IMG/VR virus record: IMGVR_UViG_3300010383_000113
Location: 101,830-165,829 of that record
Strand: one strand, 5' to 3'
Origin: a virus
Lineage: Duplodnaviria; Heunggongvirae; Uroviricota; Caudoviricetes
Length of the DNA: 64,000 nt
In this document: piece by piece, positions 5,127-63,349 of the stretch
Layout: every line of letters begins with the position of its first letter
Numbering within the stretch: the stretch's first letter is position 1
Position numbers and translations under genes: made by a program
Notes under the pieces: generated by a model
The model's input: only the letters and a program-made list of their open reading frames with translations
Databases searched by the model: none
Told to the model about the DNA's origin: nothing

Positions 5127-5471
5127 TTACCCTTCGGACTTGAGTTCTTCGACGCATGCCATGACGTCGCCCACCGTGAGGCTCCTCCCGAGGCCCAGGA
5201 CGGCCGCGTAGACCTCCTGGACGCTCAGGCCGCTGCCGGAGTCGGCCACGGCGTGCTTGACGATCCTGCGGACCTTCCAGCGGGCCAGGAGGCCGGGGTC
5301 GCGGCACTGCTCGACGGCCGACGCCGGGTACAACTGCCAGCACTCATAGGCCAGCAGGATGAGCTTCAGGATGGCGACCACCAGGACGACGTCGACCTGC
5401 TTGGGGGAATTCGAACCGCTGTCGGACGGAATCGACGCCAGGACTTGCGAGGCCAATCTTGTGATTGTCAT
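5127..5471 (-). CDS. hypothetical protein
   Basis: 114 aa ORF. Confidence 0.35.
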   Translation of the reverse strand: MTITRLASQVLASIPSDSGSNSPKQVDVVLVVAILKLILLAYECWQLYPASAVEQCRDPGLLARWKVRRIVKHAVADSGSGLSVQEVYAAVLGLGRSLTVGDVMACVEELKSEG

Positions 5472-6388
5472 TCAATCGCCACCTTAGTGCCCGGAATACA
5501 CCAGGACACATTGTCAGGAAAGAAACCACGGCTCAAATCTTTGCGTCTCAACCTAGCCTTGATATCAGGTGCATCTCCAACATCATTGAAAAACGCCATA
5601 ATGTCATCACGCCACGGTTGATGAACATCGATTCCGTTCTCTCGCGATCTCCTGAGCATCCCGTAGTAAGCGTGCCACTCCTTGGTATTCACTTTGTTGT
5701 GATCGGGCTTCAACAACAACGGCGTCGTCAGTGCCTCCTCGTCCGTCCAGCCATTCTTATGGCGGTTCCAGAGCACCTGATACGACACGCCGATTTCTTC
5801 CGCCCATTCCGACGCCGGCAGAGTCCTCCCGTTGTATGAGATGAACCAGGTGAGTTCTCTGTTGTTGGTGTTATCTCTCGGTGTTGACCAGGAGAGATTG
5901 TTCGGCATGCGGTTGGTCCGGCACCACTCGCAATCTCCGCAAGTATAAGATCCCGTATTGTCCCTCCGATCGATCTGATGCCGAGAGTCAGGTCTCGGAC
6001 CTACGACCTCAAGGAACTTGGCGAAGTCGTTTTTAATGCCGTCGCAAACCACCACGGGGATGGGAAGCCTTCCCCCATATCGATGGTAGGCATGGTGGTT
6101 GGGATTGCCACATCGTTCAAGGATCCCGTACCAAACTCCCCACTCCGGAGATTTTTCCTTACGTGTGGCATGTCCGTGTTTGGTATTTCGTCTGATCATC
6201 CTTTCCGACGTCAGGCACCCGCACGATCGAACATTTCCACGACGTAATTCACCGCCGGCCGACACATGCCAGGATTGCTTGGGGCAGGTACATCGACACA
6301 GCCAAACTCGATCGCCGTTCGACGCCCTGCCCCATTCTCTGACAACTTTCAGGCGGCCAAATTCGCGGCCGACCATCTCAATCATCAA
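5468..6388 (-). CDS. HNH homing endonuclease (HNH_3 type) with N-terminal DNA-binding domain
   Basis: HQIDRRDNTGSYTCGDCEWCRTNRMPNNLSWSTPRDNTNN (H-x-D..N..NL..N..N), NTKHGH..W..RC.NPN..Y..YGG; markedly lower GC than flanks. Confidence 0.65.
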   Translation of the reverse strand: MMIEMVGREFGRLKVVREWGRASNGDRVWLCRCTCPKQSWHVSAGGELRRGNVRSCGCLTSERMIRRNTKHGHATRKEKSPEWGVWYGILERCGNPNHHAYHRYGGRLPIPVVVCDGIKNDFAKFLEVVGPRPDSRHQIDRRDNTGSYTCGDCEWCRTNRMPNNLSWSTPRDNTNNRELTWFISYNGRTLPASEWAEEIGVSYQVLWNRHKNGWTDEEALTTPLLLKPDHNKVNTKEWHAYYGMLRRSRENGIDVHQPWRDDIMAFFNDVGDAPDIKARLRRKDLSRGFFPDNVSWCIPGTKVAIE

Positions 6389-13191: not shown

Positions 13192-13658
13192 CGAGGATCG
13201 ACTCCGACATAGAACCGCTCATACCCCTTGGGGATCATGGCGGACGGGATCACCTCGCCGGTCTTCCAGTTCTTGGAGTACGGCATGGTGGTCGGAGTGC
13301 CCATCACCATGTTGGGGATGCCACGCGGACCCGACTGGTCCGGCCTGAACGTCGGGCCGCCGATCTTCGGTGCCCTTCCCTCCTGCACGGCCGACATGGG
13401 GGTCCGCTTCTCTCTCGGGCGTCCCGCCGAGGCGTCGACGGCGGCCTTGTAGGCCTCGACCCGCCGCATGGACTCCATCTCGGCCATCATCTGGCGGGCC
13501 ATGGCCTCGTCGCGGGCCTGCTGGTTGTGGCGGGCGTAGGCGGCCCGCTTGCGGGCCATCCGCTCCTTCACACTCTGGGGCTGGGACTGGGCCCGGACGT
13601 CGGCCCCGACCAGGACGGCCGAGGCGGCGACGACCAGGGCGAGGATGCGATGCTTCAT
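13188..13658 (-). CDS. secreted hypothetical protein
   Basis: signal peptide MKHRILALVVAASAVLVGADVRA. Confidence 0.5.
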   Translation of the reverse strand: MKHRILALVVAASAVLVGADVRAQSQPQSVKERMARKRAAYARHNQQARDEAMARQMMAEMESMRRVEAYKAAVDASAGRPREKRTPMSAVQEGRAPKIGGPTFRPDQSGPRGIPNMVMGTPTTMPYSKNWKTGEVIPSAMIPKGYERFYVGVDPR

Positions 13659-15061
13659 CAGGACTCCTCCGTTTCGGATTCGGGTTTCCGGGGCTTGCGG
13701 GGACGGCCCGGCTTCTTGGCCGGCACGCCGTCCTTCTGCTGCTTATAAGCCTTCCAGCGGCCCTTGTCCACTCCCAGCGTGCTCGCACTCAGGATCTCGA
13801 TGAGTTCCGCCGGGACTCCGTCGACTTTCTCGAAAAATTCGCCGTCGGGCTTTTTGAGGGGTTGGTCCTTGCGGAACATGTCCGAGAAATAAGATTTGGC
13901 GAACTTGTACATGTCGCGACGCTTGTCCTCGGCCGACGTCCCCTCCAACTCCCGGTCGAAGACCAGGGAGGCGTGCTCGACCATCCGCTGGAGTTCCTCG
14001 TCGATCGGGTCGTCGTCCATGCCGATGGCGGCCAGCCTCCAGGCGAAGCAGTTGGCGATGCCGCAGATCATGTGGGAGCCGTACCGGGTGCCCCCCTTCG
14101 AGGTCGGCGACAGGGCCGAGCCCGGCATGAAGAGACGCTTCTCGGAGTTGGGGTTGGCGGGGTCGGACGGCTCGCCGCGTTCCTCCAGCAGTTGGTAGGC
14201 CTGGACGTAACGCTCGGCCAGCCATTCGGGCGACCTCTCGAAGTGCATCGCGATCAGGCTGCCGCCGTACACCGTGGTCGCCAGCGACGACGAATTGTCG
14301 GCGATGAGGGAGGCGTACTGCACCTTGTTCATGGCGGCCTCGTCGAACGTGACGAAGTTGCCCAGGTGGCTCCGCGTGTCCTTGGCCAGGAGGTGGACGG
14401 TCTCGGTGGCGTGCTTCACGACGGGCAGCTTCTCGTCGTCGTAGTCGCCCGACGCGATCGACATCGACTTGACGAGGTTCCGGCTGGCCGCCTTGCCCTT
14501 CTGGAAGTTCAGGAAGTCCTGGGGGAGGTGCTTGGGCGACAGCGACAGCTTGATGTTGATCGGCAGGGCGTCGATGCGACGCATCAGGTCCTCGTCGCCC
14601 TGGGCCTCGGCGAAGAAGAGTTCGAGGGCTTGGCGGCGATGATTGGCGTCGGGCAGGGGCAGTTTGCGGTCGGTCGTCGCCGTCACCTTGACCCAACGGG
14701 GCCCGCCCTCCTCGGTCGGCTCGGAATACTTCAGCCTATTGAGGTGCCAGTCCTCGATCGCCACCTCCCAGGTCGTGGGCGTGTAGGTGTCGTCCTTGAT
14801 GGCTTCGAGCAGGGCACGGACGTGGGCCTTGGTCGTCTTCCGCTGCCACCCGCCGAGTTTCTCGTAGTCGTACTCGCGGACGTAGATCAGACGCTTGAGG
14901 TAGCCGAACGGCACGACCATCGAGCTGAAGGGCCGGTCCTTCTCGGGGTCGTCGGTGACGTTCCAGACGTAGACGGGCCCGTCGAGTTCGAACGTCTCGA
15001 CCTTGGGGACCTCGGCCTTCGGCTTCGTCTTCGGCTTGGCGGGGGTCTTCGCGGCGGCCAT
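13658..15061 (-). CDS. DNA-binding protein with ParB/DGQHR-like core and C-terminal AT-hook
   Basis: 467 aa; N-terminal PAKPKTKPK; GWQRKTTKAHVRALLEAI and LPLPDANHRRQAL resemble DUF262/DGQHR signatures; C-terminal KKPGRPRKPRKP AT-hook. Confidence 0.45.
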   Translation of the reverse strand: MAAAKTPAKPKTKPKAEVPKVETFELDGPVYVWNVTDDPEKDRPFSSMVVPFGYLKRLIYVREYDYEKLGGWQRKTTKAHVRALLEAIKDDTYTPTTWEVAIEDWHLNRLKYSEPTEEGGPRWVKVTATTDRKLPLPDANHRRQALELFFAEAQGDEDLMRRIDALPINIKLSLSPKHLPQDFLNFQKGKAASRNLVKSMSIASGDYDDEKLPVVKHATETVHLLAKDTRSHLGNFVTFDEAAMNKVQYASLIADNSSSLATTVYGGSLIAMHFERSPEWLAERYVQAYQLLEERGEPSDPANPNSEKRLFMPGSALSPTSKGGTRYGSHMICGIANCFAWRLAAIGMDDDPIDEELQRMVEHASLVFDRELEGTSAEDKRRDMYKFAKSYFSDMFRKDQPLKKPDGEFFEKVDGVPAELIEILSASTLGVDKGRWKAYKQQKDGVPAKKPGRPRKPRKPESETEES

Positions 15062-16100: not shown

Positions 16101-16694
16101 TCAACGCCTAATAAAACCTAGCACTTCGTCGGGATACAGCTTCTCGACGTCGAAGCACATCCAGCGTTTGTGGTGGTTGAACGAGGCGGAGAAGGCGATC
16201 TCGTCGAGGTATCCGAGGACCCCGTCCATGTCGTCGAAGAAGAGTTCGTGGGGCAATTTCCCGAACAGCCAGTCGGGGATCGCCGCCTTGCCCTGCTTGC
16301 ACCAGACCAGGACGGGCTTCTTCTGGTCGTTGGCCCGGGAGATCTCGTCGTAGGTGCCGCAGGCGTGGACGTCAAGGTCGACGAGGGCCACCAGGAAGTC
16401 GGAGACGTTGACCATCCGCAGGTCGATGGCGTGGATCTTCTTCATGATCGAGGCGAAGTCGTCGTAACCGGCCGGGCCCTTGAAGGCGTGGCGGGCCTTT
16501 CGGCTCTCGTCGTCCTCGTGGGCCTCGTCGATCGGCTTGTCCATCGGGTCGAGCACGACGATCCCGCGACGGTGGAGTTCCGGGGTGATGCGTCGCCGCC
16601 ATTCGCGGCCGGAATTCGGGCATCGGTCGATGGGGCCGGCGAGGTAGGCTCTCTGGCCCAACAAACGCGAAACGGTTTTCAATTTCCTGGACAT
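16101..16694 (-). CDS. nucleoside 2-deoxyribosyltransferase-like protein
   Basis: start MSRKLK (ATG about 16692-16694); AYLAGPIDRCPNSGREWRRRITPELHRRGIVVLDP resembles the NDT family N-terminus. Confidence 0.5.
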   Translation of the reverse strand: MSRKLKTVSRLLGQRAYLAGPIDRCPNSGREWRRRITPELHRRGIVVLDPMDKPIDEAHEDDESRKARHAFKGPAGYDDFASIMKKIHAIDLRMVNVSDFLVALVDLDVHACGTYDEISRANDQKKPVLVWCKQGKAAIPDWLFGKLPHELFFDDMDGVLGYLDEIAFSASFNHHKRWMCFDVEKLYPDEVLGFIRR

Positions 16695-16734
16695 GATTTC
16701 TCCAACGAGGGCGATCCGGTCAAGCCACAACCTG

Positions 16735-16750
16735 TACGTAGGACGGGATC
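16735..16750 (-). promoter_or_regulatory. putative -10 element CGTCCTACGTA upstream of 16694 start
   Basis: cgTCCTAyAAT family member. Confidence 0.25.
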
Positions 16751-16830
16751 GGCCGCCTGCGGCGGCGGAGCAGGGAGGGCTGGGCCTGTGCGTTGCGGCG
16801 ACGTCGTCATGTCCCCCACTCCCTGCTACT
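16751..16830. repeat. hairpin GCCGCCtgcGGCGGC fused to GGAGCAGGGAGGGC, and inverted partner CCCCCACTCCCTGCTACTC 33 nt away
   Basis: direct reading. Confidence 0.6.
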
Positions 16831-17002
16831 CTTCTCCGTCCGGGCTGATCAGGATGGGGGCGACGATCTCTCACGAGGGTCGCGGAGCCGATCCCCGGGG
16901 CGGCCTTCCGGGGGAGGAGCAGGGAGTTCGGGGGAGGGGAAGATTTTCCACGCGGCTTGGCACGAGAGAACGGCACCGTTTTTGCTATTAATACTTCTTG
17001 GA

Positions 17003-17030
17003 AGCTTTATTGCCCGAAGGGCATAAAGCT
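17003..17030. other. stable stem-loop AGCTTTATTGCCC-GAA-GGGCATAAAGCT in AT-rich patch
   Basis: 12 bp stem with one bulge and GAA triloop. Confidence 0.4.
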
Positions 17031-17494
17031 CCAAGAAGAAGAAAGGTATGCCTCCCTCTCCCCTCCGAGCTTCTTTCCGGAATTCCCAAAGTTTTTTCCG
17101 AGATCGCCGCCCTGCCCTCCCGGCCCGTCCCGCCGCCGGTCTTGATGCGAGGCGTCCTAGAATAGTTATACCGGGGCACTGGGTCATGATGCCGCCGTCG
17201 GGATGTGGGTCCAGCCGAGACGAGTCGACCGTCGAGGCCGTTCCTGGGGTGCCCGAAACCAGTTCCGCGTCCCAGACGCCGGGTTGATCGAGAGATCGCC
17301 ACGCCGTCCGGTCGCGACGTTCGAGGATCCGAGCCTGTCAACGCGGCGTCCGACTGAGACGCCCGGCTCGGCCCGTCCGTCGCGTCGGCCCGGCGGGGTA
17401 GTCTCCCTCGGTCGGCCCGACGGATGGAGACGCGGTTGACCATCAAGACGACTCTTCAACGTGATGACAAGTGGATTTTTAGAAGGAATTTCTC

Positions 17495-19282
17495 GTGGCC
17501 GATTGTCAGACCTGGATGTTCAACCCCGGCAAGCCATGCTGCGGCGACGACGGACTCAAGTGCGGCGTCCCCCTCTTCCCGGGTGACACGCCGAACACCT
17601 GGATATACTCGCCCGTCGCCTCGGCTTCCGTAGCGGGCCGTGGGAACGTGTCCCTGGCCTTCAGGTACGCCCCTGACGGGAATCGGGGCTACTGGCGATC
17701 GTCCGTCGTCCGGTTCGACAGCGACCATGTCGTGAAGGTCGATCGTGATGGGAACCCCGTCTCGATCGGCCCCGGCGTCTCCGGCTTCCGGATCTTCTTC
17801 CGTGGGTCGTCTCGCAACCCCCTCGGGTACGAGGCCCAGCTCGTCTACATGACGGCCTTCAGCCCCCTCGACCCAGCGACCGGCGAGCCGTGGCCGAATC
17901 CCACGTCGATCAGCCAGGGGTTCCTTGACGTCGGCAGCAGGTATTTCCGGATCGACGGGCCCGTCGTCGACGGCGGTGATCCCTTCTCGTTCTTCGGCAT
18001 GAAGCGTGAGTATGAACCGGGTGCCGATGGGCCTTCGTTCGGCGTCTCCGCGTCCGGCCTCTTCGTCGGCACCTCCTTCGGATCGATCGCATTCAACTCC
18101 GCTTTGACGAGACCCGTCGGATCGTCGATCAATTACGGCGGCACGCCGAGGTTCTTGGCGTCCTCTCCTCCGACCGTCGCTTCAAGTTTCGGAGTCTCAA
18201 CCCAGACGGCCGACGCGAGCGAATGCTGCCGTCCATGGTGCCAGACCTGCCAATGCTTCCTGGATTACTTCGCCACGGTGGACGACGGCAACGGAGTCTG
18301 GTGGCTCAATCGGACGAACACGCAGTCTGGCATCGCCGGGGGTAGGAACGTCTACACGGGGAGTGGATGGAAGCACACCGGGCTGTTCTACCCGGACTAT
18401 CCTGGTTCGACCAAGTTGTTCGAGCGTTTCAGTAATTACGACTTCAACGTCTACTGCTGCGGTGATTCCATCAAGCTCGCCGTGCAGTACAACCTCTACG
18501 AATACGGCGTTGGGCTTGGCGGGCAGACCATCATCTACACGCGGAACATGGTGCCCTTGTATAAGCAGTTCGTCCTAACGGGCGACCCCGGTTCCGGTCA
18601 GATGTCGCTCGAACCGATGGATGGCGTCTACACACAGAACACCTACTCGCCGCCGAGCGTCCGGGACGCCTGCACGAACCTCGTCAAACTCGACGTCGAT
18701 GCCTACAACGCCCTCTACTCGAACAACCAGACCTTCCCTCACACGATGTTCGTGCTGGACCATGACGGCGGTCCGAACATGCCGGTCACCGGCGGCACGG
18801 TCGCCATCCGGACGATGGACCAGCGTCGTGTCGTGTGCTGTCGCTATCCCTTGCCGAAGAAGAACCTCGTCCTGAGCTGGACCCACCCCGAGATCGGCGA
18901 CGGATCCGTGAGGTTGATCTACAACGGCGGCGACCAGATATTCACGGCCGGGTGGGTCGCCGAGTCCGTCGTGCAGACGAGCGTGCCGTTCCCGGCCGGG
19001 ACTTCGTGTGCGGGTCGTCCGGCGGGATTGAAGTTCATCCTCGGATGCGGAGGCCTCGGCTACCAGCCTCATTCCACGGACGGATGCTTCAGCACGGACA
19101 CGTCATCCCTGCTCGAATTCCACCCCTATCCGGTCGCCACGACGTCGGAAGACCTCCTCTTCTGGATCAGCAGCCGCCCCCTCGTCATCGAATGGCAGAA
19201 GTATTGGCGTCCCGAACTGGGTACTCCCGTGCCCTCGTTCTTCTCTCAGCTCGGCTTCACCAGCCTGACGATCACGGAGTGA
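17495..19282 (+). CDS. large Gly/Ser/Cys-rich hypothetical protein (possible structural or adsorption protein)
   Basis: 595 aa; GTG 17495 or ATG 17516; CCRPWCQTCQC, YCCGDS; only long plus-strand gene. Confidence 0.5.
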   Translation: MADCQTWMFNPGKPCCGDDGLKCGVPLFPGDTPNTWIYSPVASASVAGRGNVSLAFRYAPDGNRGYWRSSVVRFDSDHVVKVDRDGNPVSIGPGVSGFRIFFRGSSRNPLGYEAQLVYMTAFSPLDPATGEPWPNPTSISQGFLDVGSRYFRIDGPVVDGGDPFSFFGMKREYEPGADGPSFGVSASGLFVGTSFGSIAFNSALTRPVGSSINYGGTPRFLASSPPTVASSFGVSTQTADASECCRPWCQTCQCFLDYFATVDDGNGVWWLNRTNTQSGIAGGRNVYTGSGWKHTGLFYPDYPGSTKLFERFSNYDFNVYCCGDSIKLAVQYNLYEYGVGLGGQTIIYTRNMVPLYKQFVLTGDPGSGQMSLEPMDGVYTQNTYSPPSVRDACTNLVKLDVDAYNALYSNNQTFPHTMFVLDHDGGPNMPVTGGTVAIRTMDQRRVVCCRYPLPKKNLVLSWTHPEIGDGSVRLIYNGGDQIFTAGWVAESVVQTSVPFPAGTSCAGRPAGLKFILGCGGLGYQPHSTDGCFSTDTSSLLEFHPYPVATTSEDLLFWISSRPLVIEWQKYWRPELGTPVPSFFSQLGFTSLTITE

Positions 19283-19284
19283 AC

Positions 19285-19722
19285 ATGAAGTGCGATCACT
19301 GTCCGGTCGCCCGAGGAGGATCGTGCCGTGGAGAACGGATCAAACGATATTGCGAGTTGTCCGACCCGGCCCGCAAGGACTACGACCCCACCTACGTCGA
19401 CTTCTTGATCGGGGATGCGAAGCAGGGAGGGGTTGGGCCCGGCCCCTCGTTCCTCAAGAAGGCCGCCAACTTCGCCAGGGCCGCCGTCAAGCACGCGGCC
19501 GACGGGTTCGGCGTCGTCCCGGACGAGGTCCGCGAGGCGAGGCTGGCCAGATGCCGCCCATGTCGCTTCTACGACGACGGGACGTGCCGGCACGAGGAAT
19601 GCGGCTGCCACCTGGAGACGAAGGCGTCCTGGGCCTCCCAGGCCTGCCCGATCGACGAGTGGGGCCCTCATGAGGTCGACGGCCCCGGGCATGGCTGTTC
19701 CTCGTGCGGGGGTGGGCGATGA
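19285..19722 (+). CDS. cysteine-rich putative metal-binding protein
   Basis: MKCDHCPVARGGSCRGE..CRPCRFYDDGTCRHEECGCH; the ORF-track upstream extension overlaps 17495..19282 in another frame and is rejected. Confidence 0.5.
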   Translation: MKCDHCPVARGGSCRGERIKRYCELSDPARKDYDPTYVDFLIGDAKQGGVGPGPSFLKKAANFARAAVKHAADGFGVVPDEVREARLARCRPCRFYDDGTCRHEECGCHLETKASWASQACPIDEWGPHEVDGPGHGCSSCGGGR

Positions 19723-20381
19723 AGATCTGCTGCGTTTCCGATCTCCACGGCCATCTGCCCGAGATCCCCGACTGCGACCTCCTGCTCCTCGGCGGCGACC
19801 TGGTCCCGAGGTGGGCCCACGAGCCTCTCATCGGCCGATCCTGGCTCGACACGAACTTCCGGCGATGGCTTGACGGTCTAACGAGTCGGTGTCGCGTCGT
19901 CGGCGTGGCGGGCAATCACGACTTCGTCTTCGAGGCCGGGATGGGCGATCTCGCACGCCCCCTGCCCTGGACCTACCTCCAGGACTCGGACTACACAGTC
20001 GGTGGCCTCAAGGTCTACGGGAGCCCTTGGCAGCCCTACTTCGGCGGATGGGCGTTCAACCTCGAAGAGGACGACCTGGCCGCCAGGTGGGAGATGGTCC
20101 CGGGCGACGCGGACATCCTCCTCCTGCACGGCCCTCCCTATCTCCATGGCGACTTGACGCCCGAGGGCCTCCATGTGGGCAGCCCCTCCCTGCTCCGATC
20201 CATCCGGAGGGTCCGACCACGCCTGGTTGTTTGCGGACACATCCATTCGGCTCGCGGCGTCTACGAGGTCGGCGTCACGACGATCGTGAACGCCTCATTG
20301 GTCGACGAGGCCTATCGGCCCATTCATGAGCCGTTCCTGGTCGAGATCGACGGCGACGAGGCCGAGGTCCTTCGGGTGTAA
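19719..20381 (+). CDS. metallophosphoesterase (calcineurin-like)
   Basis: VSDLHGH, GGDL, GNHDF, GHIHSARG; ATGA overlap with previous gene. Confidence 0.7.
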   Translation: MKICCVSDLHGHLPEIPDCDLLLLGGDLVPRWAHEPLIGRSWLDTNFRRWLDGLTSRCRVVGVAGNHDFVFEAGMGDLARPLPWTYLQDSDYTVGGLKVYGSPWQPYFGGWAFNLEEDDLAARWEMVPGDADILLLHGPPYLHGDLTPEGLHVGSPSLLRSIRRVRPRLVVCGHIHSARGVYEVGVTTIVNASLVDEAYRPIHEPFLVEIDGDEAEVLRV

Positions 20382-20383
20382 AC

Positions 20384-20426
20384 GAAAAAAGCCGCAGAGG
20401 TCGTGCCCCTGCGGCTTGGTTCTTCA
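20384..20426. terminator. bidirectional rho-independent terminator between convergent genes
   Basis: AAAAAA-GCCGCAG-loop-CTGCGGC-TTGGTTCTT; a U-run follows the hairpin on both strands. Confidence 0.6.
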
Positions 20427-21194
20427 GTCGATGATCTCGGCGATGGCCACCTTCATGCTGGCGGCGGCGGTCTCGTAGGCCTCGGCCGACTCCTTGGGGT
20501 TCAGCTTGAGGCGGCGGCCGATCTTGGCGAGGGACTCGGGCTCCTCCCGGTCGATCCCGAAACGCCTCACGAGGAAGTAGCGTTCGGCGGGGTCGATGCG
20601 ATGGAGGCCGTCCCGGACCAGCTTCACGACGCCGTCGCAGCCGATGTCCGAGGGGTCGGCCTCGTCCTCGTCGGCCACGTCGAGCCTGGTGCCGTCCTCT
20701 CGCGGCGAGTGGAAGGAGGCCGTCTTGCGAGACGCCAGCACGGCCACGATGGCGTCGTACTCGTCCGACGACAGGTCGAAGGACGACATCGCCTCCTCCT
20801 TGGTCGGACGGCGGCCGTTCTCGTCCTGGAACCAGCGGACGAGCCGCTGAAACTTCAGGATGGTCTTGCTGGCGTGGACGGGGACGCGGATCAGGGTGCC
20901 GTTGCGATAGATCGCGTTCTGGATGGCCTCGACCACCCGGAACTTCGCGTGGGTGGAGAACCGGGCCTTGCCGGGGTCGAAGTCCTCGACGGCACGGCAG
21001 AGGCCCAGCATCCCTTCCTGCATCAGGTCCTCGCGTTCGACGCCGCGTCCGACATATGTACGGGCGACGGCCCGGACCAGGGGGATGTGCTTGGCGACCA
21101 GGTCGGCTTTCGACGTGGGCCGGCAGTTCGTGTCGGCTTCGACGCCGCAACCTTCGAAAAAACCACGTTCCTCTTCCAGCGTCAGGTAGGCCAT
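20424..21194 (-). CDS. sigma-70 family sigma factor (group 3-like)
   Basis: region 2 DLMQEGMLGLCRAVEDFDPGKARFSTHAKFRVVEAIQNAI; region 4 YFLVRRFGIDREEPESLAKIGRRLKLNPKE. Confidence 0.7.
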   Translation of the reverse strand: MAYLTLEEERGFFEGCGVEADTNCRPTSKADLVAKHIPLVRAVARTYVGRGVEREDLMQEGMLGLCRAVEDFDPGKARFSTHAKFRVVEAIQNAIYRNGTLIRVPVHASKTILKFQRLVRWFQDENGRRPTKEEAMSSFDLSSDEYDAIVAVLASRKTASFHSPREDGTRLDVADEDEADPSDIGCDGVVKLVRDGLHRIDPAERYFLVRRFGIDREEPESLAKIGRRLKLNPKESAEAYETAAASMKVAIAEIID

Positions 21195-21548: not shown

Positions 21549-21802
21549 TTAGGCGTGAAACGGCACGATGCAATAGGAATCTTCGAGATGTCCGCATGTC
21601 GATGCCAGTTCAGCCTTTCGGCAAGCCTCGCGGTAGGACGGGAATCGGGTGGCGGTGGCGGGGTCGGTCGTGAACCGGGTGCCCCAGACGTAGGAGGCGA
21701 TCGGGCGGCGGGGGTTGTCGACGCGGATGATGAGCGATTCGGCCATCGGGGTCTCCGGGTGAAAGTTCGGCGGACCCCTGTAATGTAGGACGAGCGGATC
21801 CA
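21549..21802 (-). CDS. hypothetical small protein
   Basis: ATGATG at about 21797-21802 lies 4 nt after GGAGCAGGGAGG; an alternative start MAESLII (about 21740) is preceded by CGTCCTACATT and GGAG. Confidence 0.35.
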
Positions 21803-25205: not shown

Positions 25206-26606
25206 CTAGCGGGGCGTGTTTCCCCGATTTTCCAGGATGTAGCGAATTATCTTCTCTCGCAGGGCTGCCGACTTCAGCGTCTTCCGCCATCCAGCCTTCC
25301 TCGGCTCCGCATGCTCATTATCAATATCTCTGAATGTCAGTTCAAGTTCGTTTTTGTAAAGTTCCTCGACTTTCTCGGTAATTTCACGTCGCACGGCATC
25401 CGACATCTTCGACCAGATCCTCTCGGCGACCGCTGAATCGTCGAGTTTTGACTCATGATTGGCACCATCCCGTCCGACATGAATAGTTGTACGCACCCGA
25501 GATGAGATGTCAACGGGCAGTCGGTGGAAACCTCCCGGAATCGCACGAACGACATATCCTGCCAGGCTTCTCTTGATTTCCCCTTTTGACTGCATTTCCC
25601 GTGCCACCTTCACGGTGTGCAGGATGTCGTCCTCGCGATGCTCGGCGGCCAGCTTCTCGGCGGCCTGGCGGGCGACACCGCACTCCAGCAGGGCCCTCAA
25701 CCCCTCGGAGGCGGGGGCCTGGACGGGGAGGGGAGGAGCAGGGGGGGTCGAGGGGAGGGTCGCATTTCCGGCCCGGACGACGACGCGGACGTCCCAACCC
25801 CCGTCGGGCCTCTTCCTATAACGCCCCTCGGGGCCGGGTTGTTCCAGGAATCCGACGGATTCAAGCTGTGCAAAACCCGGGCTGAGCTTCTGTTTGATCT
25901 GGCCGGCGTCGAGCTTTTCACGCCCCATCATCCCCATCTTGTCGAACGCGAAGCTCCGAAGGTCATAGGCCTGCTCCAGGGAGCCGACGTGGGCCTGCCT
26001 CCCGAGGTAGCGGAACATGTGCTTGGCGAGGGGCTTCGAAATCCGGCGATACGTCTCGAAGTCGAACTCGCGGACGTTGCCGGCCCGCAGGCTGTTGAAC
26101 ATCCGGCTGTCCCAGGTGACCTCGTAATACGATCGCCCCCTGCTCCCGGCCCCCTTGCCCTCCACGAAGTTGCCGATCACCTGGAAGTGGGCGTCCTCCA
26201 GCACGCCCGTCGTCTTGTTGAACCAGGCGTTCTTGAAGTCGAGCAGGACGAGCCGCCACAGGCTGATGGAGGCTTGCAACCTCTCATACGACCACCCCTG
26301 CTTCCTCCACCCTATCAACTTGATCATTTCCGTAGGGGTGAACGAGAATGCGGGCGTCTCAAATCCGTCGATCCGATGATGCAGCGTAATCAGACCCAGG
26401 ATCACTTCCTCGTCGACCGTGGACGGGAGGTTCAGGCTGCCGTTGACCGATATCGTGAAGGACCTGACGACGGGCTGGCCCGTGATCGGGTGCGGGATCC
26501 GGTCCTGGTAGGTCACGGACCTGGCCCCGACCATCTTCTCGCTCGCGGGGAAGCACATGGGGAAGTCCGACATGTTCAACTCGTCGCGGCCGGGGTCCGT
26601 CGTCAT
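25206..26606 (-). CDS. repA: replication initiator protein (RepA-like)
   Basis: 466 aa; sits directly between an AT-rich inverted repeat and an eight-copy iteron array, and next to parAB; assignment is by context plus weak family resemblance. Confidence 0.5.
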   Translation of the reverse strand: MTTDPGRDELNMSDFPMCFPASEKMVGARSVTYQDRIPHPITGQPVVRSFTISVNGSLNLPSTVDEEVILGLITLHHRIDGFETPAFSFTPTEMIKLIGWRKQGWSYERLQASISLWRLVLLDFKNAWFNKTTGVLEDAHFQVIGNFVEGKGAGSRGRSYYEVTWDSRMFNSLRAGNVREFDFETYRRISKPLAKHMFRYLGRQAHVGSLEQAYDLRSFAFDKMGMMGREKLDAGQIKQKLSPGFAQLESVGFLEQPGPEGRYRKRPDGGWDVRVVVRAGNATLPSTPPAPPLPVQAPASEGLRALLECGVARQAAEKLAAEHREDDILHTVKVAREMQSKGEIKRSLAGYVVRAIPGGFHRLPVDISSRVRTTIHVGRDGANHESKLDDSAVAERIWSKMSDAVRREITEKVEELYKNELELTFRDIDNEHAEPRKAGWRKTLKSAALREKIIRYILENRGNTPR

Positions 26607-26612
26607 CCGGGT

Positions 26613-26660
26613 CTCCTGTTGTTGATTCTTTTCGAAAGAACATCAAACAAACAACAGGAG
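26613..26660. promoter_or_regulatory. AT-rich inverted repeat at repA start (operator or DNA-unwinding element candidate)
   Basis: CTCCTGTTGTT..N26..AACAACAGGAG with internal TTCTTTTCGAAAGAA. Confidence 0.45.
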
Positions 26661-53826: not shown

Positions 53827-54293
53827 TCATCCGCCCTCATCAGATTGATGCTGCGGTCGTTGTTGATCATGATCCGGAAGATGTCGCCGACTTGCGGGAG
53901 GTGGTCGAAGAAGACCCTGTCGGCGTGTTCTCGCAGGATCATGGTCCGGCCGTCCTTCAGGCCGCGAACTTCTACGACGACATCATAGGACCGGGCCTCG
54001 TGCTGCTTGTAATTGCCGTACTTGTAGACGTCGGTTTCGCCCAGGGCTCGAACAACTTCGACCAGGCCGTCGTTGCTCTTGGCATAGCCCTGAAGATTTG
54101 TCAGGACGGCCTGTTTCTTCAGGTGGTCGTTAACGGCCATGTAGCCGAACACAGTCAGAATCAGGAACAACGGGAGGAGTAAACCTCCCATCATCGTCCA
54201 GAAAAAGATCTGGGCGTCTTTGTCGGCGTCGGAGACGCCTCCCTTGGTGGTTCTGGTCGCATTCGAGATCGCCACCATCGCTGGTAGGTTCAA
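53823..54293 (-). CDS. membrane protein
   Basis: TM MMGGLLLPLFLILTVFGYM. Confidence 0.4.
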   Translation of the reverse strand: MNLPAMVAISNATRTTKGGVSDADKDAQIFFWTMMGGLLLPLFLILTVFGYMAVNDHLKKQAVLTNLQGYAKSNDGLVEVVRALGETDVYKYGNYKQHEARSYDVVVEVRGLKDGRTMILREHADRVFFDHLPQVGDIFRIMINNDRSINLMRADE

Positions 54294-56080
54294 GACTGGG
54301 CCCTCCTGCGGATCTCGGCGAAGGTCTCGTCGATCAGCAGGCGGCCATCGCGAAAGACTTCACGCATCTGGTCGTCCGGCTCGTTGATCGAGGCACAACG
54401 ATCCACCAGGCGGTAGTCGCCGTTCTCGTCGAGGACCACCTTAGTATATCCACGAGCTGATTTCTTGGTGCCGGAATCGGTCGCGGGATCCTTGAAGATC
54501 TCGCGGAACTCGCCGTTGACGATGCCGGCCGTGGACTTCACAGCGAAGCCGAAGGTGTCCCGAGTGACCATCTGATAGGTGTTGTGGGATAGGTAGCCGT
54601 TCGTGATGAACGTGCCACACGAGGTCTGAATGCCTGCGATCGGTTGTTTCCCGACGGGGTTGATCGAGGTGATCGTCGCCAGTTGGTAGGTCCTCCCTCT
54701 GGCCAGAGCGGGCATCTCTGCGGTAATCGCGTCGATCTTCTCCAGTAGTCGTTCGGGTCGTACCTGGCCGAGGAAGCGGAGTGTTTCTACCCATCCCCCC
54801 GTAAGGATGACGTGTTCGCACTTACGGTCAAGACGGTAGTACGTGAATTCTCGATCGTCGAGTCGGGCTTTGATTCGTTCCAGTGTGGGCGTTTGGTTTT
54901 GGGAGATGCTTACCTTCCATGACGGAATTCGATCCCCGGTGTTGCAGACACCAAGTCCTCCTTCGCCGTCGAACATGCCCGCAAGCCACCCGCCTTCGCG
55001 GGTATTGTCTGTTTCCCAGGGGTCGCATAGGTAGGCGATCTGATCGCCCACTTCGAGTTCGTAGGTTCGTTTCCAAACCAGGCCGGGATTTCGAGGGAAG
55101 TCCTTCGATGATTGGGCTTTGTTTGGGTCGAAGAAGACGTTGTTCTTACGGCGGCTTGGTGCGTAGACCAGCCAGGGATGGTCGTCGCTGGCGGTGATGT
55201 CTGGTCCGATATCGGTTGAGATCTGGGTCGAGAGTTTCGTGCCTGGATTGTTGTACTCGATGGTAGCCTTGCGGAATCGACGAGTGGCATGACGACCATT
55301 GTCGAAATTCGGATCCTCGTCGAACGCGATGATTTCCTGCCCGACTTTCAAATCACCGGCACGTCGCCAGATCAAATCGGCACACAAAATGAGAGTTTCG
55401 GGATGGACGCAATAGGAACCGACCCCAAACGTGATGTTCGAGGATGCGAACCCCTTTGCTTTCAGGCCCTCCAGGATGGCCTTGGCACGCTCCAGGGTGA
55501 TCGAGTCCCCATAAATCGTCCCGATGTGGCTGTCGAGGACTTTGTAGCCCTTGGAGTTGATGGTCCCGCCGAACGTCTGCCATAGCACGTCCAGGGTTCC
55601 CATCTCGGCGGGCTCGGGAATGGCGACATTCCAGTCAGAGATCCAAACCCGGGTCGCGACGCCCTGCTGGGCCTCGTACGAGCAGGTAAGGTCCCAGTAG
55701 ACGACCAGACCATCCTTGTCCACGCGAATGCGGTCGACGTACTTATGAGGCCGTCCGCCGACATGCAAGACCTCCTCGTTGATCTTGAACTTGGCTACAT
55801 CGCCGTGTTCCTGTATCGCTTGCTCGATCGACGAGTAGGTCCGGACTGGCTTTCCGCAGATCACTTCGACTGGACTGCCAGAATCTGGTCTCACTACAGT
55901 CTTCCCGTCGCGGGACATGATGACTTTCTTGAGACGTGGAAGGCTGTCTGATAGCACAGACCAGTAGTCGAATGAGTCAGACACCAGCGATACGATCCCC
56001 TTGGGATAAACGTTGGTGATCATGTGCTTGATGAAGGCGGTTTCAGACAGCAGTCGGTAGTTCGTCTCGAAACTCGTCAT
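54290..56080 (-). CDS. nicotinamide phosphoribosyltransferase-family protein, C-terminal half, interrupted by an intein
   Basis: LVSDSFDYW and RPDSGSP (NAMPT motifs) then GVGSY|CVHPETL...TASDDHPW...LAGMFDGEGGLG...ITNGYLSHN|T (intein blocks A, B, LAGLIDADG, terminal HN). Confidence 0.7.
   Translation of the reverse strand: MTSFETNYRLLSETAFIKHMITNVYPKGIVSLVSDSFDYWSVLSDSLPRLKKVIMSRDGKTVVRPDSGSPVEVICGKPVRTYSSIEQAIQEHGDVAKFKINEEVLHVGGRPHKYVDRIRVDKDGLVVYWDLTCSYEAQQGVATRVWISDWNVAIPEPAEMGTLDVLWQTFGGTINSKGYKVLDSHIGTIYGDSITLERAKAILEGLKAKGFASSNITFGVGSYCVHPETLILCADLIWRRAGDLKVGQEIIAFDEDPNFDNGRHATRRFRKATIEYNNPGTKLSTQISTDIGPDITASDDHPWLVYAPSRRKNNVFFDPNKAQSSKDFPRNPGLVWKRTYELEVGDQIAYLCDPWETDNTREGGWLAGMFDGEGGLGVCNTGDRIPSWKVSISQNQTPTLERIKARLDDREFTYYRLDRKCEHVILTGGWVETLRFLGQVRPERLLEKIDAITAEMPALARGRTYQLATITSINPVGKQPIAGIQTSCGTFITNGYLSHNTYQMVTRDTFGFAVKSTAGIVNGEFREIFKDPATDSGTKKSARGYTKVVLDENGDYRLVDRCASINEPDDQMREVFRDGRLLIDETFAEIRRRAQS
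54580..55410 (-). mobile_element. intein (about 277 aa) with LAGLIDADG homing-endonuclease-like domain inside the NAMPT C-half
   Basis: N-terminal Cys, TxxH block B, LAGMFDGEGG, C-terminal SHN followed by Thr; lower GC; coordinates approximate. Confidence 0.6.
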
Positions 56081-58125: not shown

Positions 58126-58368
58126 TCAAAATTCGTGACAGATACAGGGACAGTCGTAGTCCAGACCCAGGCACTCACAGCACTCCTCGTCCTCGAAGTC
58201 AAACGACGGAGGGCCTGCTTCCTGCTGTTCGAGCTTTCGTTCGAGTTCGTCGAGTCGCCGGGTGGCGTTGTGCCACTCGTTCTCAACCCTGGCGAACTGA
58301 CTGATGGCCCAGAACGCCCAGGACCCGTGTAAGATAGTTAGGACGACGACGGTGATCAGGATGCTCAT
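58126..58368 (-). CDS. membrane protein with Cys-rich tail
   Basis: start MSILITVVVLTIL; CCECLGLDYDCPCICHEF. Confidence 0.35.
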   Translation of the reverse strand: MSILITVVVLTILHGSWAFWAISQFARVENEWHNATRRLDELERKLEQQEAGPPSFDFEDEECCECLGLDYDCPCICHEF

Positions 58369-59286
58369 GAGAAGCTCCGAAGGTTGCCGTAGGAATCGAA
58401 GTCGAGGGGCATCACGCCGAAAGGTTGATTGGGCCAGAGCCACAGCATGTCGTCGGCTCGCAGGACGGATTCCGACTTAAAGCTGTCGGTCGTGTAGATT
58501 CCGTCGATATCTTGGTAGAGAACGTCCACACCCTTGGAGAAGATCCCGTGGGTGACGTACAGGAGGACCTTGGAGGCCCCCGCCTTCTTCAAGACCTTGG
58601 CCAGTTCGAGGAAGGTGCGTCCGCCGTCGCAGATGTCGTCGACGATGAGGCAGGCCCTCCCTGCTACCTTGTGACCCTCGGGCAGCTCGGTCGAAAGGAT
58701 GTCGCCCGTCTTCGTGCATCGCACCTTGGTGGCCGTCACCACGTCCAGGCCGTAGGCCGAGGCGGTCTTCCAGGCCTTCTTGTAGGCCCCGGCGTCCGGG
58801 CTGACGATAACCGTCTGGGAATCCTTGAGGACGCCCTGGAGGCCGCTGTGGGCCCTCACAAGGGCATCCTGCTCGATCACCCGGCAGTTGTTCAGGAGGG
58901 CCGGCGTGACGTCCGAGTGAGGGTCGCAGATGATGATGTTGTCGTGCCAGGGATGGTCGTCGATGAGGCGGGCGATCGACTTCAGGGAGAAGGCCTCGCC
59001 GTGTGCCATCCGACGGTCCTGGCGGGCGTACGGGAAGTAGGGCACGACGAGGTTGCAGATCCCACCAAAACTGCATTGCTCGTTCAACAGATCGAGGAGG
59101 AGCAGGAGGTGAATGACATCGTCGCTCGACTGGAGCCTCGCCGTGATGGTTACGTCGCCGGAGAAGTGCTGTGGGACCAGGGAGGCCTTGGCCTGAATCT
59201 CTCCTCCAGAGAACTGGAAGGAATTGGTGTTGAGGATCTCGCGTTCCCAGGGTTTCGGCCAGTGGGAGATTTCGATCTGATTCATG
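58365..59286 (-). CDS. ribose-phosphate pyrophosphokinase homolog (Prs-like; possibly ADPR-pyrophosphate synthetase)
   Basis: start MNQIEISHW; VVPYFPYARQDR and LIVDDICDGGRT (PRPP-binding loop). Confidence 0.7.
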
Positions 59287-59344
59287 GGGCCTTCAGTTGG
59301 TGTCGTGATAGAGGACTTCCAGGACCGTCTTGTGGCAGCAGCGA

Positions 59345-59722
59345 TCAAGATTTGCCATTTACTCGTTCGACCACATAGAAATACAGGTAAGACGACGCTA
59401 TCAAGGCCACGGTGATTGGTCCAAAGGCGGAACCGACGGCGACGGTCCCACTGAGTTTGAGACGCTCTCTCCAGCAGAGGTCTTTGATTGGGAAGCCGAG
59501 ACGAAGGTCGATCTTGTAGTGGCGGTCCAGGTAGAAGAGAAGGCTTTCCGTCATCATCACGCAGGCGATGAGCGAACAGACGGCCCAGAAGACGAAGAAG
59601 TTCACTTGACGGTTCCTCTGACCTTGATGGAGTTCGAGAGGCGACGCATGATACCATTCCAGCCGTTCACGGCCCCTGCCCTCGTGTACCACTTGGGGCC
59701 ACCGCTGCCGCACCGCCGACAA
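59345..59722 (-). CDS. membrane protein
   Basis: hydrophobic segments VNFFVFWAVCSLIACVMM, ITVALIASSYLYFYVV. Confidence 0.35.
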   Translation of the reverse strand: MSAVRQRWPQVVHEGRGRERLEWYHASPLELHQGQRNRQVNFFVFWAVCSLIACVMMTESLLFYLDRHYKIDLRLGFPIKDLCWRERLKLSGTVAVGSAFGPITVALIASSYLYFYVVERVNGKS

Positions 59723-62153: not shown

Positions 62154-62410
62154 TCGCGATCGATGGACAGGGCATCGAGCATCTCAAGAAGCTCGTTATA
62201 GCCATCCTTCAGGAGTATGCCGTCGACGAAGATCGCCAGATTCTTGTTCTTGTCATCGACCACGATTTGAATCCTCAGTTCCTTGCCGGTCCTGCTGTTT
62301 TGCAGGCTGGTTTTCGTCCGATAGGTGTCTAGGGGTATCAGGCCACTCCCGGCGGTGATGGTAGGATCGGTCCTGTCGATGGGGCCACGGTAGAAAGTCA
62401 ATTCAGCCAT
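62111..62410 (-). CDS. hypothetical protein
   Basis: 99 aa ORF. Confidence 0.35.
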   Translation of the reverse strand: MAELTFYRGPIDRTDPTITAGSGLIPLDTYRTKTSLQNSRTGKELRIQIVVDDKNKNLAIFVDGILLKDGYNELLEMLDALSIDREWIRIENMDKGRCE

Positions 62411-62759
62411 TAGCGAGTTCCTCAGCGTGCTCTTTGAGTGCTTGAAGTTCTTCTCGGGCGGACCTCACGTCTTGAGGGCAGATGAACCCTCGATGGGTCT
62501 CATGCGTGCCTTTGGCCACATAAACAATGGCTTGGACACCCTCGTGACCGCTCGACGATTCAAACTCCGAGATGAGTAGGTCGATGATTTCTGTCGATGG
62601 TGTGTTCTTAAGTGCCGGCCGACGATTCCACTTCAGAAGGCTGTCCGTCCAGATGTCGCAGGACTCACAGCCATAGGTGTTGTACCACCAGCCAGTTTCA
62701 TCTAGGGTTCGCTCGCTGGTCGCCGCCTCGCCGCAGAATGGGCAATTCTCAACTATCAC
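62403..62759 (-). CDS. Lar-family-like zinc-ribbon protein (possible restriction alleviation)
   Basis: N-terminal NCPFCGE...CESC resembles the Lar-family KPCPFCG signature. Confidence 0.4.
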   Translation of the reverse strand: MIVENCPFCGEAATSERTLDETGWWYNTYGCESCDIWTDSLLKWNRRPALKNTPSTEIIDLLISEFESSSGHEGVQAIVYVAKGTHETHRGFICPQDVRSAREELQALKEHAEELANG

Positions 62760-63349
62760 GTCTCGCTCTCCTCTGTTCCGGGTGATTGGTTTAGTAGTTC
62801 ACGCAATGTAGCGACAGCGATGGAGACTGGCGGTTGTGAGGTGTGGGTGTTGATCTCGACCCTCCATTCGTTCGGCATGTCGGCCATGACGAGCAACAGA
62901 AGCGATCGGGCACCGTCCATCTGAGCCTTCGTTAAATTGTTGGCGTCACGGGCCTCGGTTGACGCTTGCTCAAACTTCGCCGCGAATGCCCGGGGCTTGT
63001 ATGAACGCACCTCGCCATCGGGCATGGTGACGATCCAATCACCTACGTCCACGGGGCACTTGCCGCTACGGGTTTGGACTCCTGGTAGTGGGACTCCATC
63101 GAAAGTACAGCCGACCACTGCGGGGTGATCTCCCCACTTAAACCATTGAATAGCTTCAACTTCGAATGACCTCGGTCGATATCGTCCAACATTCATTAGT
63201 CGAATTGCCTTTCGTCTTGGTACTTCCAACGCTCGGAGGATCTGATCTCCGGATTGGGCATTGTCGTCGCTGAGGAATGCTTTCGTCAGGGCGTGACTGT
63301 CTTGGTCGAGCAGTCTTCGGACTTCGGGCGACATGGGGACTTTTGACAT
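62756..63349 (-). CDS. hypothetical protein
   Basis: 197 aa ORF. Confidence 0.4.
   Translation of the reverse strand: MSKVPMSPEVRRLLDQDSHALTKAFLSDDNAQSGDQILRALEVPRRKAIRLMNVGRYRPRSFEVEAIQWFKWGDHPAVVGCTFDGVPLPGVQTRSGKCPVDVGDWIVTMPDGEVRSYKPRAFAAKFEQASTEARDANNLTKAQMDGARSLLLLVMADMPNEWRVEINTHTSQPPVSIAVATLRELLNQSPGTEESET

Follow-up and report, generated by a model that had tools for sequence, protein, structure and literature searches.

MPPED2 has the fold of a class-III cyclic-nucleotide phosphodiesterase, and tail-fibre genes paired with assembly-chaperone genes are represented by T4 gp37-gp38, lambda stf-tfa and Mu S-U. The PDC-S10 family has been reported in freshwater jumbophages (bioRxiv 10.64898/2026.04.22.720137), and the calcineurin-like protein MisA belongs to the Metis defence system, where it cleaves NAD+ in a setting of phage-host conflict (bioRxiv 10.1101/2025.11.05.686725). 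Here, we describe a locus that bears comparison with each of these systems, on a 64-kb stretch (hereafter the window; 60% GC) of IMG/VR record IMGVR_UViG_3300010383_000113, a large phage-like genome. The only three credible plus-strand genes of the window lie together in one block and encode a protein of 595 residues (P595), a cysteine-rich protein of 145 residues (P145) and a metallophosphoesterase (MPE). With moderate confidence, we interpret this block as an operon of three genes that has a promoter of its own, is ancestral to a small clade of large uncultured phages and probably serves in host interaction.

The plus-strand block and its three products

Genes were called with a likelihood model of codon usage, for which 14 confident genes served as the training set. 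The model picked about 115 genes in the window, and all three credible plus-strand genes were found at 17495-20381; a survey of GC content at third codon positions (GC3) gave the same result, which confirmed the single opposite-strand block described by a first-pass annotation of the window. The plus-strand calls of the model were 17516-19282, 19357-19722 and 19719-20381, together with an artefact of 22 aa. Refinement by homology placed the start of P595 at a GTG at 17495, that of P145 at an ATG at 19285 and that of MPE at an ATG at 19719. The features of the locus are as follows.

16101-16694, minus strand: nucleoside deoxyribosyltransferase-like (NDT-like) gene, the left neighbour and first gene of the restarting minus-strand array (Pfam Nuc_deoxyrib_tr, E 3.9e-8)
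16695-17494, no strand: non-coding spacer of 800 bp between divergent genes
16978-17012, no strand: AT-rich patch 1, with a possible extended -10 element just upstream of the hairpin
16995-17037, no strand: long hairpin (palindrome) of 19 bp with one bulge and a GAA loop
17462-17493, plus strand: AT-rich patch 2, which includes the ribosome-binding region (GAAGGA) and directly precedes the P595 GTG
17495-19282, plus strand: P595 (595 aa), coding score +138, GC3 0.82, codon adaptation index (CAI) 0.68
19285-19722, plus strand: P145 (145 aa), DUF6171-type protein with 12 invariant cysteines
19719-20381, plus strand: MPE (220 aa), stand-alone metallophosphoesterase of the MPPED2/PDC-S10 type
20389-20417, minus strand: intrinsic terminator hairpin that separates the MPE gene from the convergent sigma gene
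20424-21194, minus strand: sigma70-family factor gene, the right neighbour, convergent with the block (Sigma70_r2, E 3.8e-18; phrog_351, E 1.2e-33)

The stop codon of P595 is separated from the start of P145 by a gap of 2 nt, and the stop of P145 overlaps the start of MPE in an ATGA; these junctions indicate that the three genes form one translationally coupled operon. The codon usage of the block is native to the genome (CAI 0.68-0.70 versus a genome value of 0.72 +/- 0.12; GC3 0.82-0.83), and the GC skew flips inside the block alone, tracking gene orientation. We found no inverted or direct repeats at the block borders except copies of a genome-wide motif, one of which is inside the MPE gene. 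An invertible or mobile segment was rejected on the basis of the missing boundary repeats, the lack of an adjacent recombinase and an orientation that is identical in all lineages.

MPE matched the calcineurin-like Metallophos family (PF00149) with an E-value of 1.3e-12 and 49 bits against a cut-off of 21.5. Its residues 1-211 aligned with positions 10-217 of the 223-position PADLOC profile of the candidate defence family PDC-S10, a full-length match with an E-value of 3e-60, and the match to MPPED2 (PDB 3rl4, E 4.4e-34) covers MPE residues 85-211 only. As read from the translation, the metal-binding signature is complete, consisting of SDLHG (DxH), GGDL (GD), GNHD, LLHGPP (H) and CGHIH (GHxH). 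MPE is most probably a nucleotide phosphodiesterase. Homologs were present in 99 deposited phage genomes, including those of crAss-like, Flavobacterium and jumbo phages. In the 308-kb jumbophage Tunturi_5 of Tunturiibacter, the gene for an MPE homolog of 38% identity (locus L020, 7001-8405) overlaps and is co-directional with an annotated nucleoside deoxyribosyltransferase gene, whose product showed no BLASTP similarity to the NDT-like protein of the window and no match to the Pfam family of that enzyme. A phage phosphatase that extends NARP1, the phage pathway of NAD+ reconstitution, was also considered as a counterpart of MPE and was rejected, as it is a Macro-domain enzyme.

P145 matched DUF6171 (PF19668) with an E-value of 2.1e-7 and 31.7 bits against a cut-off of 27, and phrog_13558 with an E-value of 3.4e-10. 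The PF19668 match aligned P145 residues 80-126 with positions 36-80 of the 80-position profile, that is, with the C-terminal half of the profile only. The 12 invariant cysteines of P145 would be enough for three Cys4 sites. The P145 orthologs of the two related lineages described below are 41-44% identical to it and begin with MKC(D/K)(H/Y)CP. More distant DUF6171 homologs were found in cyanophages only, and a literature search returned no paper mentioning DUF6171.

P595 is an acidic, soluble protein (pI 5.4) that contains no transmembrane segment; it is rich in G, S, T, P, F and Y (G 11.6%, S 9.2%), poor in K, E and R, and has 17 cysteines. Eight cysteines are invariant in its family, with the motifs PCCG..C at the N-terminal end and CC-x2-W-C-x2-C at residues 244-252. 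All three known orthologs start at a non-ATG codon (GTG, GTG and TTG) upstream of a conserved TW(M/L)(F/Y)N, and the GTG start of P595 is favoured over the ATG called by JGI since this conserved segment precedes that ATG. A comparison of thirds of the protein by hhalign revealed no internal duplication.

The searches revealed how rare this protein is. Its record comes from a single JGI contig (171,667 bp). P595 itself was the sole match when 5.8 billion proteins were searched by word seeding, tblastn with each member of the family as query gave no match in 50,697 phage genomes, and nothing besides the source contig was found in IMG/VR and GTDB genomes. One further match emerged when 1.84 billion cluster representatives were searched exhaustively with phmmer, namely P0003 (587 aa, E 4.8e-5), which aligns with P595 end to end and has TW..N.G.PCCG, CC..WC..C and L.LSW...GDGS in common with it; the third ortholog was matched by hhalign with a probability of 99.7% and an E-value of 1.6e-26. 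The three members and their family profile had no match in Pfam, PHROG, NCBIfam, PADLOC or PDB, which includes any fibre, spike or receptor-binding protein in PHROG, Pfam or PDB, and profile searches of PDB with the P595 and DUF6171 alignments gave chance-level matches only. The invariant C245-x3-C249-x2-C252 suggested a radical SAM enzyme; this candidate was rejected, as neither Radical_SAM nor any other Pfam family matched at E-values up to 5. By these sequence comparisons, P595 is the founding member of a very rare family that comprises three lineages and carries no annotation. Together with its Cys-rich partner, it probably forms a metal-binding pair with a variable target in the host or on the virion.

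Conservation of the locus in related phages

P0003 is encoded on Logan contigs, the longest of 194,617 bp, with a GC content of ~51% (lineage L003). The map of this locus comprises an NDT-like gene (minus strand), a gap of 878 bp, the 587-aa gene, an uncalled DUF6171 gene beginning MKCDHCPV and an MPE gene (all plus strand), and a sigma gene (minus strand); all remaining genes are on the minus strand. The third lineage was found using the well-conserved NDT-like protein as an anchor. In its members L008 and L009 (61% GC), a spacer of 678 bp is followed by the P595 homolog, the DUF6171 gene, an inserted Trypsin_2 gene and 76-aa gene, the MPE gene and a convergent sigma gene. The spacer therefore stays long in the relatives (878 and 678 bp versus 800 bp in the window), and the junction between the P595 and DUF6171 genes is an ATGA overlap in L003 and a 2-nt gap in L008. 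As evident from these maps, the block lies at the same locus, in the same order and in the same orientation in three of the three known lineages, between the NDT-like and sigma genes. The block was absent from more distant phages that carry an NDT-like gene (48-54% identity), most of which have a T4-type rIIB.

Pairwise identities among the three lineages are as follows.

NDT-like protein: 60-68% (window protein against the L003 and L008 orthologs, 60-62%)
MPE: 55-61% (the same range for the window protein against the L003 and L008 orthologs)
DUF6171 protein: 37-44%
DndB-like protein: 37-40%
Sigma factor: 23-29%
P595: 21-31%

The evolution of P595 is far more rapid than that of the proteins encoded next to it. 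In each of the three lineages, the neighbourhood consists of NDT-like, DndB-like, sigma, ParAB and nucleotide-metabolism genes and is not a structural or tail module; the other genes of the window include those for both ribonucleotide reductase subunits, ThyX, a NAMPT-like protein, a Prs-like protein, ParA/ParB, a RepA-like protein and an HNH endonuclease. Genome sizes in this clade are 170 kb or more, and the phages code for a sigma factor of their own. The first-pass annotation had proposed that the block is an accessory cassette. This proposal was not supported, given the common position in the three lineages, the native codon usage and the lack of boundary repeats. Of the two findings that the annotation had named as refuting it, one was obtained, as the block is syntenic and present in all three known lineages, and the other was not, as P595 matched no core replication or structural family, nor any family at all. 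The annotation had also suggested a virion or host-interaction protein; the composition of P595 and its fast evolution are compatible with this, although the searches gave no homology and AlphaFold2 no usable model that would speak for it.

Two further observations concern these loci. DndB is associated with DNA sulfur modification, and a DndB-like protein of 467-489 aa is encoded in all lineages (window 13658-15061, L003 5740-7209, L008 6962-8383); its match to DndB is weak (E 2e-4), and it had no match in deposited phage genomes. In L004, ~8 kb beyond the sigma gene (21604-21764), the coding strand switches to plus, with a 1353-aa gene that continues past the end of the locus. The L003/L004 genome probably has a plus-strand arm that is perhaps structural or late and has the same orientation as the block.

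The spacer, the terminator and the genome-wide motif

The spacer at 16695-17494 is the largest real non-coding stretch in the window, as the first-pass annotation had stated. All open reading frames (ORFs) within it had negative coding scores in the codon-usage model, and two nominally larger gaps were rejected as coding, one containing the HNH endonuclease gene (5468-6388) and the other two low-GC3 ORFs (62403-63349). The plus-strand block is opposite to the array and therefore needs a promoter of its own, and minus-strand transcription that has stopped after the sigma gene must restart in the spacer. On this logic, the spacer is the presumed site of both divergent promoters. The independent regulation suggested for the block is supported by the same logic and by indirect evidence, namely the AT-rich patches and, in L003, a near-consensus promoter that points at the NDT-like gene.

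AT-rich patches were defined as at least 67% AT over 30 nt. The patch noted earlier in the spacer is real, and the spacer holds two of the nine such patches of the 64 kb (binomial P about 0.005); an AT-rich patch is also present in the L003 and L008 spacers. By sequence inspection only, patch 1 contains a candidate extended -10 element on the plus strand (TGcTATTAAT, 16983-16992), and a strict sigma70 scan gave no promoter at this site. In the L003 spacer, we found a near-consensus sigma70-type TTGACC-16-TATAAT directed toward the NDT-like gene, ~380 nt upstream of its start. In the window, the NDT-like gene starts at an ATG at 16694, which is preceded by GGAGAAATC.

The hairpin had been described as a 12-bp stem at 17003-17030; a hairpin is indeed present and is larger than in this description, as the stem has 19 bp with one bulge and spans 16995-17037. 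Its folding energy is -25.3 kcal/mol, with z-scores of -6.2 (plus strand) and -5.4 (minus strand), and 0 of 200 shuffled sequences were as stable. A U-tract is missing on both sides, so that it is not a canonical terminator. No equivalent was found in the L003 or L008 spacers, and the hairpin is lineage-specific. Comparison of the three spacers by MAFFT, blastn-short, nhmmer and six-frame blastp revealed no homology beyond a genome-wide 11-13-mer and no shared ORF, no strong hairpin was common to the three, and an Rfam search of the region and of the relatives' loci gave no match in the spacers. Within lineages, the spacers of the variants (L003/4/5 and L008/9/10) are near-identical, with only 0-2 substitutions between them.

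The motif copies reported in the spacer belong to a genome-wide element. With at most one mismatch, GGAGCAGGGAG occurs 43 times in the window versus 2.4 expected, about equally on both strands, and the element extends to about G[G/T]AGCAGGG[A/G]G[G/T]G. Three of the 43 copies are in the left ~240 bp of the spacer (16767 plus, 16819 minus and 16916 plus) and are able to pair with one another. The exact 11-mer is also present in L003 with its GC content of 51%, which indicates that the motif is conserved in the clade. Examples of its positions are 1222, 9893, 10049, 16767, 16916, 20186, 21812, 27977, 35816, 43903, 45167, 46811, 53588 and 59762 in the window, and 73, 629, 5186, 9002 and 9171 in L003. 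Many sense-strand copies are located directly 5' of start codons, like an extended Shine-Dalgarno sequence, and some follow a small GCCT[T/G]CGGCG hairpin. Others form inverted pairs that could fold into hairpins, one example being 53590/53613 with a T-rich tail behind it. In the presumed leader of the NDT-like gene (16680-16932, minus strand), two mutually exclusive motif pairings can be drawn, 16813-16831 with 16914-16932 or 16769-16788 with 16808-16827. A possible 41-codon ORF seen by eye in this leader begins at an ATG at 16810, overlaps the NDT-like start with its end and is not conserved in L008. An analogous long-range pairing of GGAGCAGGGG with CTCCCTGCTCC is present in L003 and missing from L008. 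These pairings might reflect an attenuator-like leader or chance.

At the other end of the block, the first-pass annotation had seen a textbook bidirectional terminator. The stem (20389-20417; 12 pairs, 8 of them GC) and the T-run in the sigma direction are real: on the minus strand, downstream of the sigma gene, the stem is followed by TTTTTTCGTTT, and the A6 tract upstream of the stem is a perfect U-tract on this strand. The bidirectional part was overstated, as the plus-strand tail is a weak TTGGTTCTTC and was not called as a terminator by the scan. The terminator is thus textbook for sigma and at best moderate for the plus-strand block. In the relatives, the convergent genes for MPE and sigma overlap by 51 nt (L003) and 90 nt (L008) at the 3' end, and no terminator was found at this junction in either; the window terminator is a lineage-specific addition.

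Other parts of the window showed the following. The NAMPT-like protein (596 aa, 54290-56080) has a weak HNH-like match at residues 362-408, and the Prs-like protein (430 aa, 58365-59657) is a ribose-phosphate pyrophosphokinase homolog; the two genes are adjacent in L003 (15621-18187) and ~2.3 kb apart in the window. Approximately 33 kb between the sigma and NAMPT-like genes (window 21.2-54 kb) are missing from L003 (13.5-15.6 kb). This segment contains genes for ParB, ParA, a Uma2-like nuclease and a RepA-like protein, as well as dozens of small ORFs, and is a large insertion or deletion between the relatives, possibly with a plasmid-like maintenance module. Directly upstream of the RepA-like gene (25206-26606) is an AT-rich near-perfect palindrome, TGTTGTTGATTCTTTTCGAAAGAACATCAAACAAACAACA (26617-26656), a candidate operator or origin element. 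The HNH endonuclease gene at 5468-6388 (phrog_374, E 1.4e-43) lies between the ribonucleotide reductase genes and ThyX, has a GC3 of 0.61, well below that of its neighbours, and is probably a mobile homing endonuclease.

Interpretation and comparison with known systems

If the block is an ancestral, separately promoted operon, the spacer would act as a divergent promoter region that fires the plus-strand operon and restarts minus-strand transcription toward the NDT-like gene, a restart that is needed because upstream minus-strand transcription ends after the sigma gene. With lower confidence, the operon may be viewed as a host-interaction or take-over module, in which the substrate of MPE would be a phosphodiester of the nucleotide type, for example a cyclic nucleotide or a metabolite or signal resembling a dinucleotide, and P595 and its co-translated Cys-rich partner would form a metal-binding complex that contacts a variable target of the host or virion.

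Several observations weigh against this interpretation. No promoter for the plus-strand operon was found in any of the three lineages, and the term control region, as applied to the spacers from their sequences, rests on position, length and AT-rich patches, as the spacers share no sequence or structure. The word ancestral holds for a narrow clade only, of which three lineages are known. AlphaFold2 gave P595 a pLDDT (confidence score) of 31 from the single sequence and 27 from a two-sequence alignment, and the role proposed for this protein is a guess. Elsewhere, MPE occurs among nucleotide-metabolism genes, adjoining thymidylate synthase in crAss-like phages and near a deoxynucleoside monophosphate kinase in Tunturi_5, so that plain nucleotide metabolism may replace host interaction.

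Four other explanations were weighed. According to the first, the block is a counter-defence or nucleotide-signal module, in which MPE breaks down a nucleotide signal of host immunity or alters NAD-related metabolites, with P595 and the DUF6171 protein as accessory inhibitors. The end-to-end match of MPE to PDC-S10 (E 3e-60) and its similarity to MPPED2 are consistent with such an activity, as are the NAD+ cleavage by calcineurin-like MisA in phage-host conflict and the evolution of P595 at arms-race speed. However, PDC-S10 is a candidate family, the phage MPE lacks a sensor domain, and MPE is found in nucleotide-metabolism contexts in other phages. To our knowledge, moreover, the phosphodiesterases with anti-signal activity (Acb1 and Apyc1) have other folds. 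The genome also carries a pair of genes similar to NAMPT/Namat and Prs/Adps of NARP1 (bioRxiv 10.1101/2024.02.11.579819), which speaks for this explanation. On balance, we regard this explanation as unlikely, although it deserves consideration.

In the second explanation, which appears doubtful, the block is a virion module in which P595 is a tail-fibre or receptor-binding type of protein and the DUF6171 protein its co-translated assembly factor. The acidic, G/S/T/N/Y/F-rich composition of P595, its lack of transmembrane segments, its conserved extreme N-terminus and fast-diverging body, and its tight coupling to a small downstream gene in all lineages would suit such a protein, and genes annotated as "tail fiber" and "host specific protein J" flank a DUF6171-like gene of Synechococcus phage S-CBS2. 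However, these S-CBS2 neighbours did not match the P595 profile, and the DUF6171 homolog of S-SSM7 lies among unrelated genes and away from structural ones. In addition, no structural match was obtained in PHROG, Pfam or PDB, even with the family profile, and the block is located among nucleotide-metabolism, partition and sigma genes in an operon that includes an enzyme.

It is improbable, in our judgement, that the spacer is a replication origin or a structured non-coding RNA gene and that the strand switch is a by-product. The spacer exceeds all other non-coding stretches in length, remains long in three lineages and lies at the strand switch, and it has an AT-rich patch and a 19-bp hairpin of very high stability. 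However, the change in GC skew is confined to the block with no global inflection, we found no iterons, tandem repeats or Rfam match, no sequence or structure is common to the lineages, the hairpin is present in the window only, and a RepA-like gene with its own AT-rich palindrome is located elsewhere (25206-26656). We give a similarly small chance to the bolder proposal that P595 and the 12-Cys DUF6171 protein form a new metal or Fe-S complex, that with MPE they constitute a new counter-defence or take-over system, and that transcription converging on the sigma gene, which overlaps the MPE gene in two of the three lineages, also acts as an antisense or interference brake on this late-gene sigma factor. 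A recently acquired accessory island or moron, variably present among relatives, is largely refuted and very improbable: the block is the sole one on the opposite strand and has its own terminator, its content is not fixed (L008 has the extra Trypsin_2 and 76-aa genes) and P595 is nearly an ORFan, but the position, order and orientation are the same in three lineages diverged to 21-61% identity, codon usage and GC3 are native with no flanking repeats, and MPE is conserved as well as the core neighbours.

These results indicate that strand orientation alone is a poor guide to accessory status, as a lone opposite-strand block is among the most stably placed features of this clade. The P595 family, with three lineages found among 1.84 billion representatives, is accompanied in each by a DUF6171 partner and linked to a phosphoesterase of the MPPED2/PDC-S10 type, and both DUF6171 and PDC-S10 thereby gain a reproducible genomic partner. 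If MPE acts on immune nucleotides or NAD-related metabolites, it would bring a new enzyme fold into phage counter-defence; if it does not, the block would be an ordinary, separately timed operon with a P595 of no assigned role.

We compared the operon with the known systems that resemble it and found general similarities as well as clear differences. Like moron-like or separately timed divergent cassettes, it is a short opposite-strand block with an upstream non-coding promoter region and an end convergent with the main array; closure by a hairpin terminator, a further similarity, is present in the window only. In contrast to such cassettes, the block is fixed across three deeply diverged lineages and has native codon usage. 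As in the pairs of fibre and chaperone genes, a small gene is tightly coupled to the gene before it, whose large product evolves fast but has a conserved N-terminus. Unlike in these pairs, there is no sequence or profile similarity to any fibre or chaperone family, the block is outside any structural module and its third gene encodes an enzyme. With MPPED2/239FB-type enzymes (3rl4) and PDC-S10, MPE shares a single-domain organisation and a strongly matching catalytic core; it differs in being phage-encoded, in an operon with two uncharacterised Cys-rich proteins, and PDC-S10 is itself a candidate family. MisA carries a sensor domain, whereas the phage MPE has none. The NAMPT-like and Prs-like pair of the window resembles NARP1, in which NAD+ is reconstituted by Namat and Adps. 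Finally, the C-terminal C-x2-C...C-x4-CGC...CP...W core of P145 fits DUF6171 and phrog_13558, whereas its subfamily has two additional elements, an MKCxxCP...C...C cluster at the N-terminus and a CxxC at the C-terminus, and is always coupled downstream of a P595-family gene.

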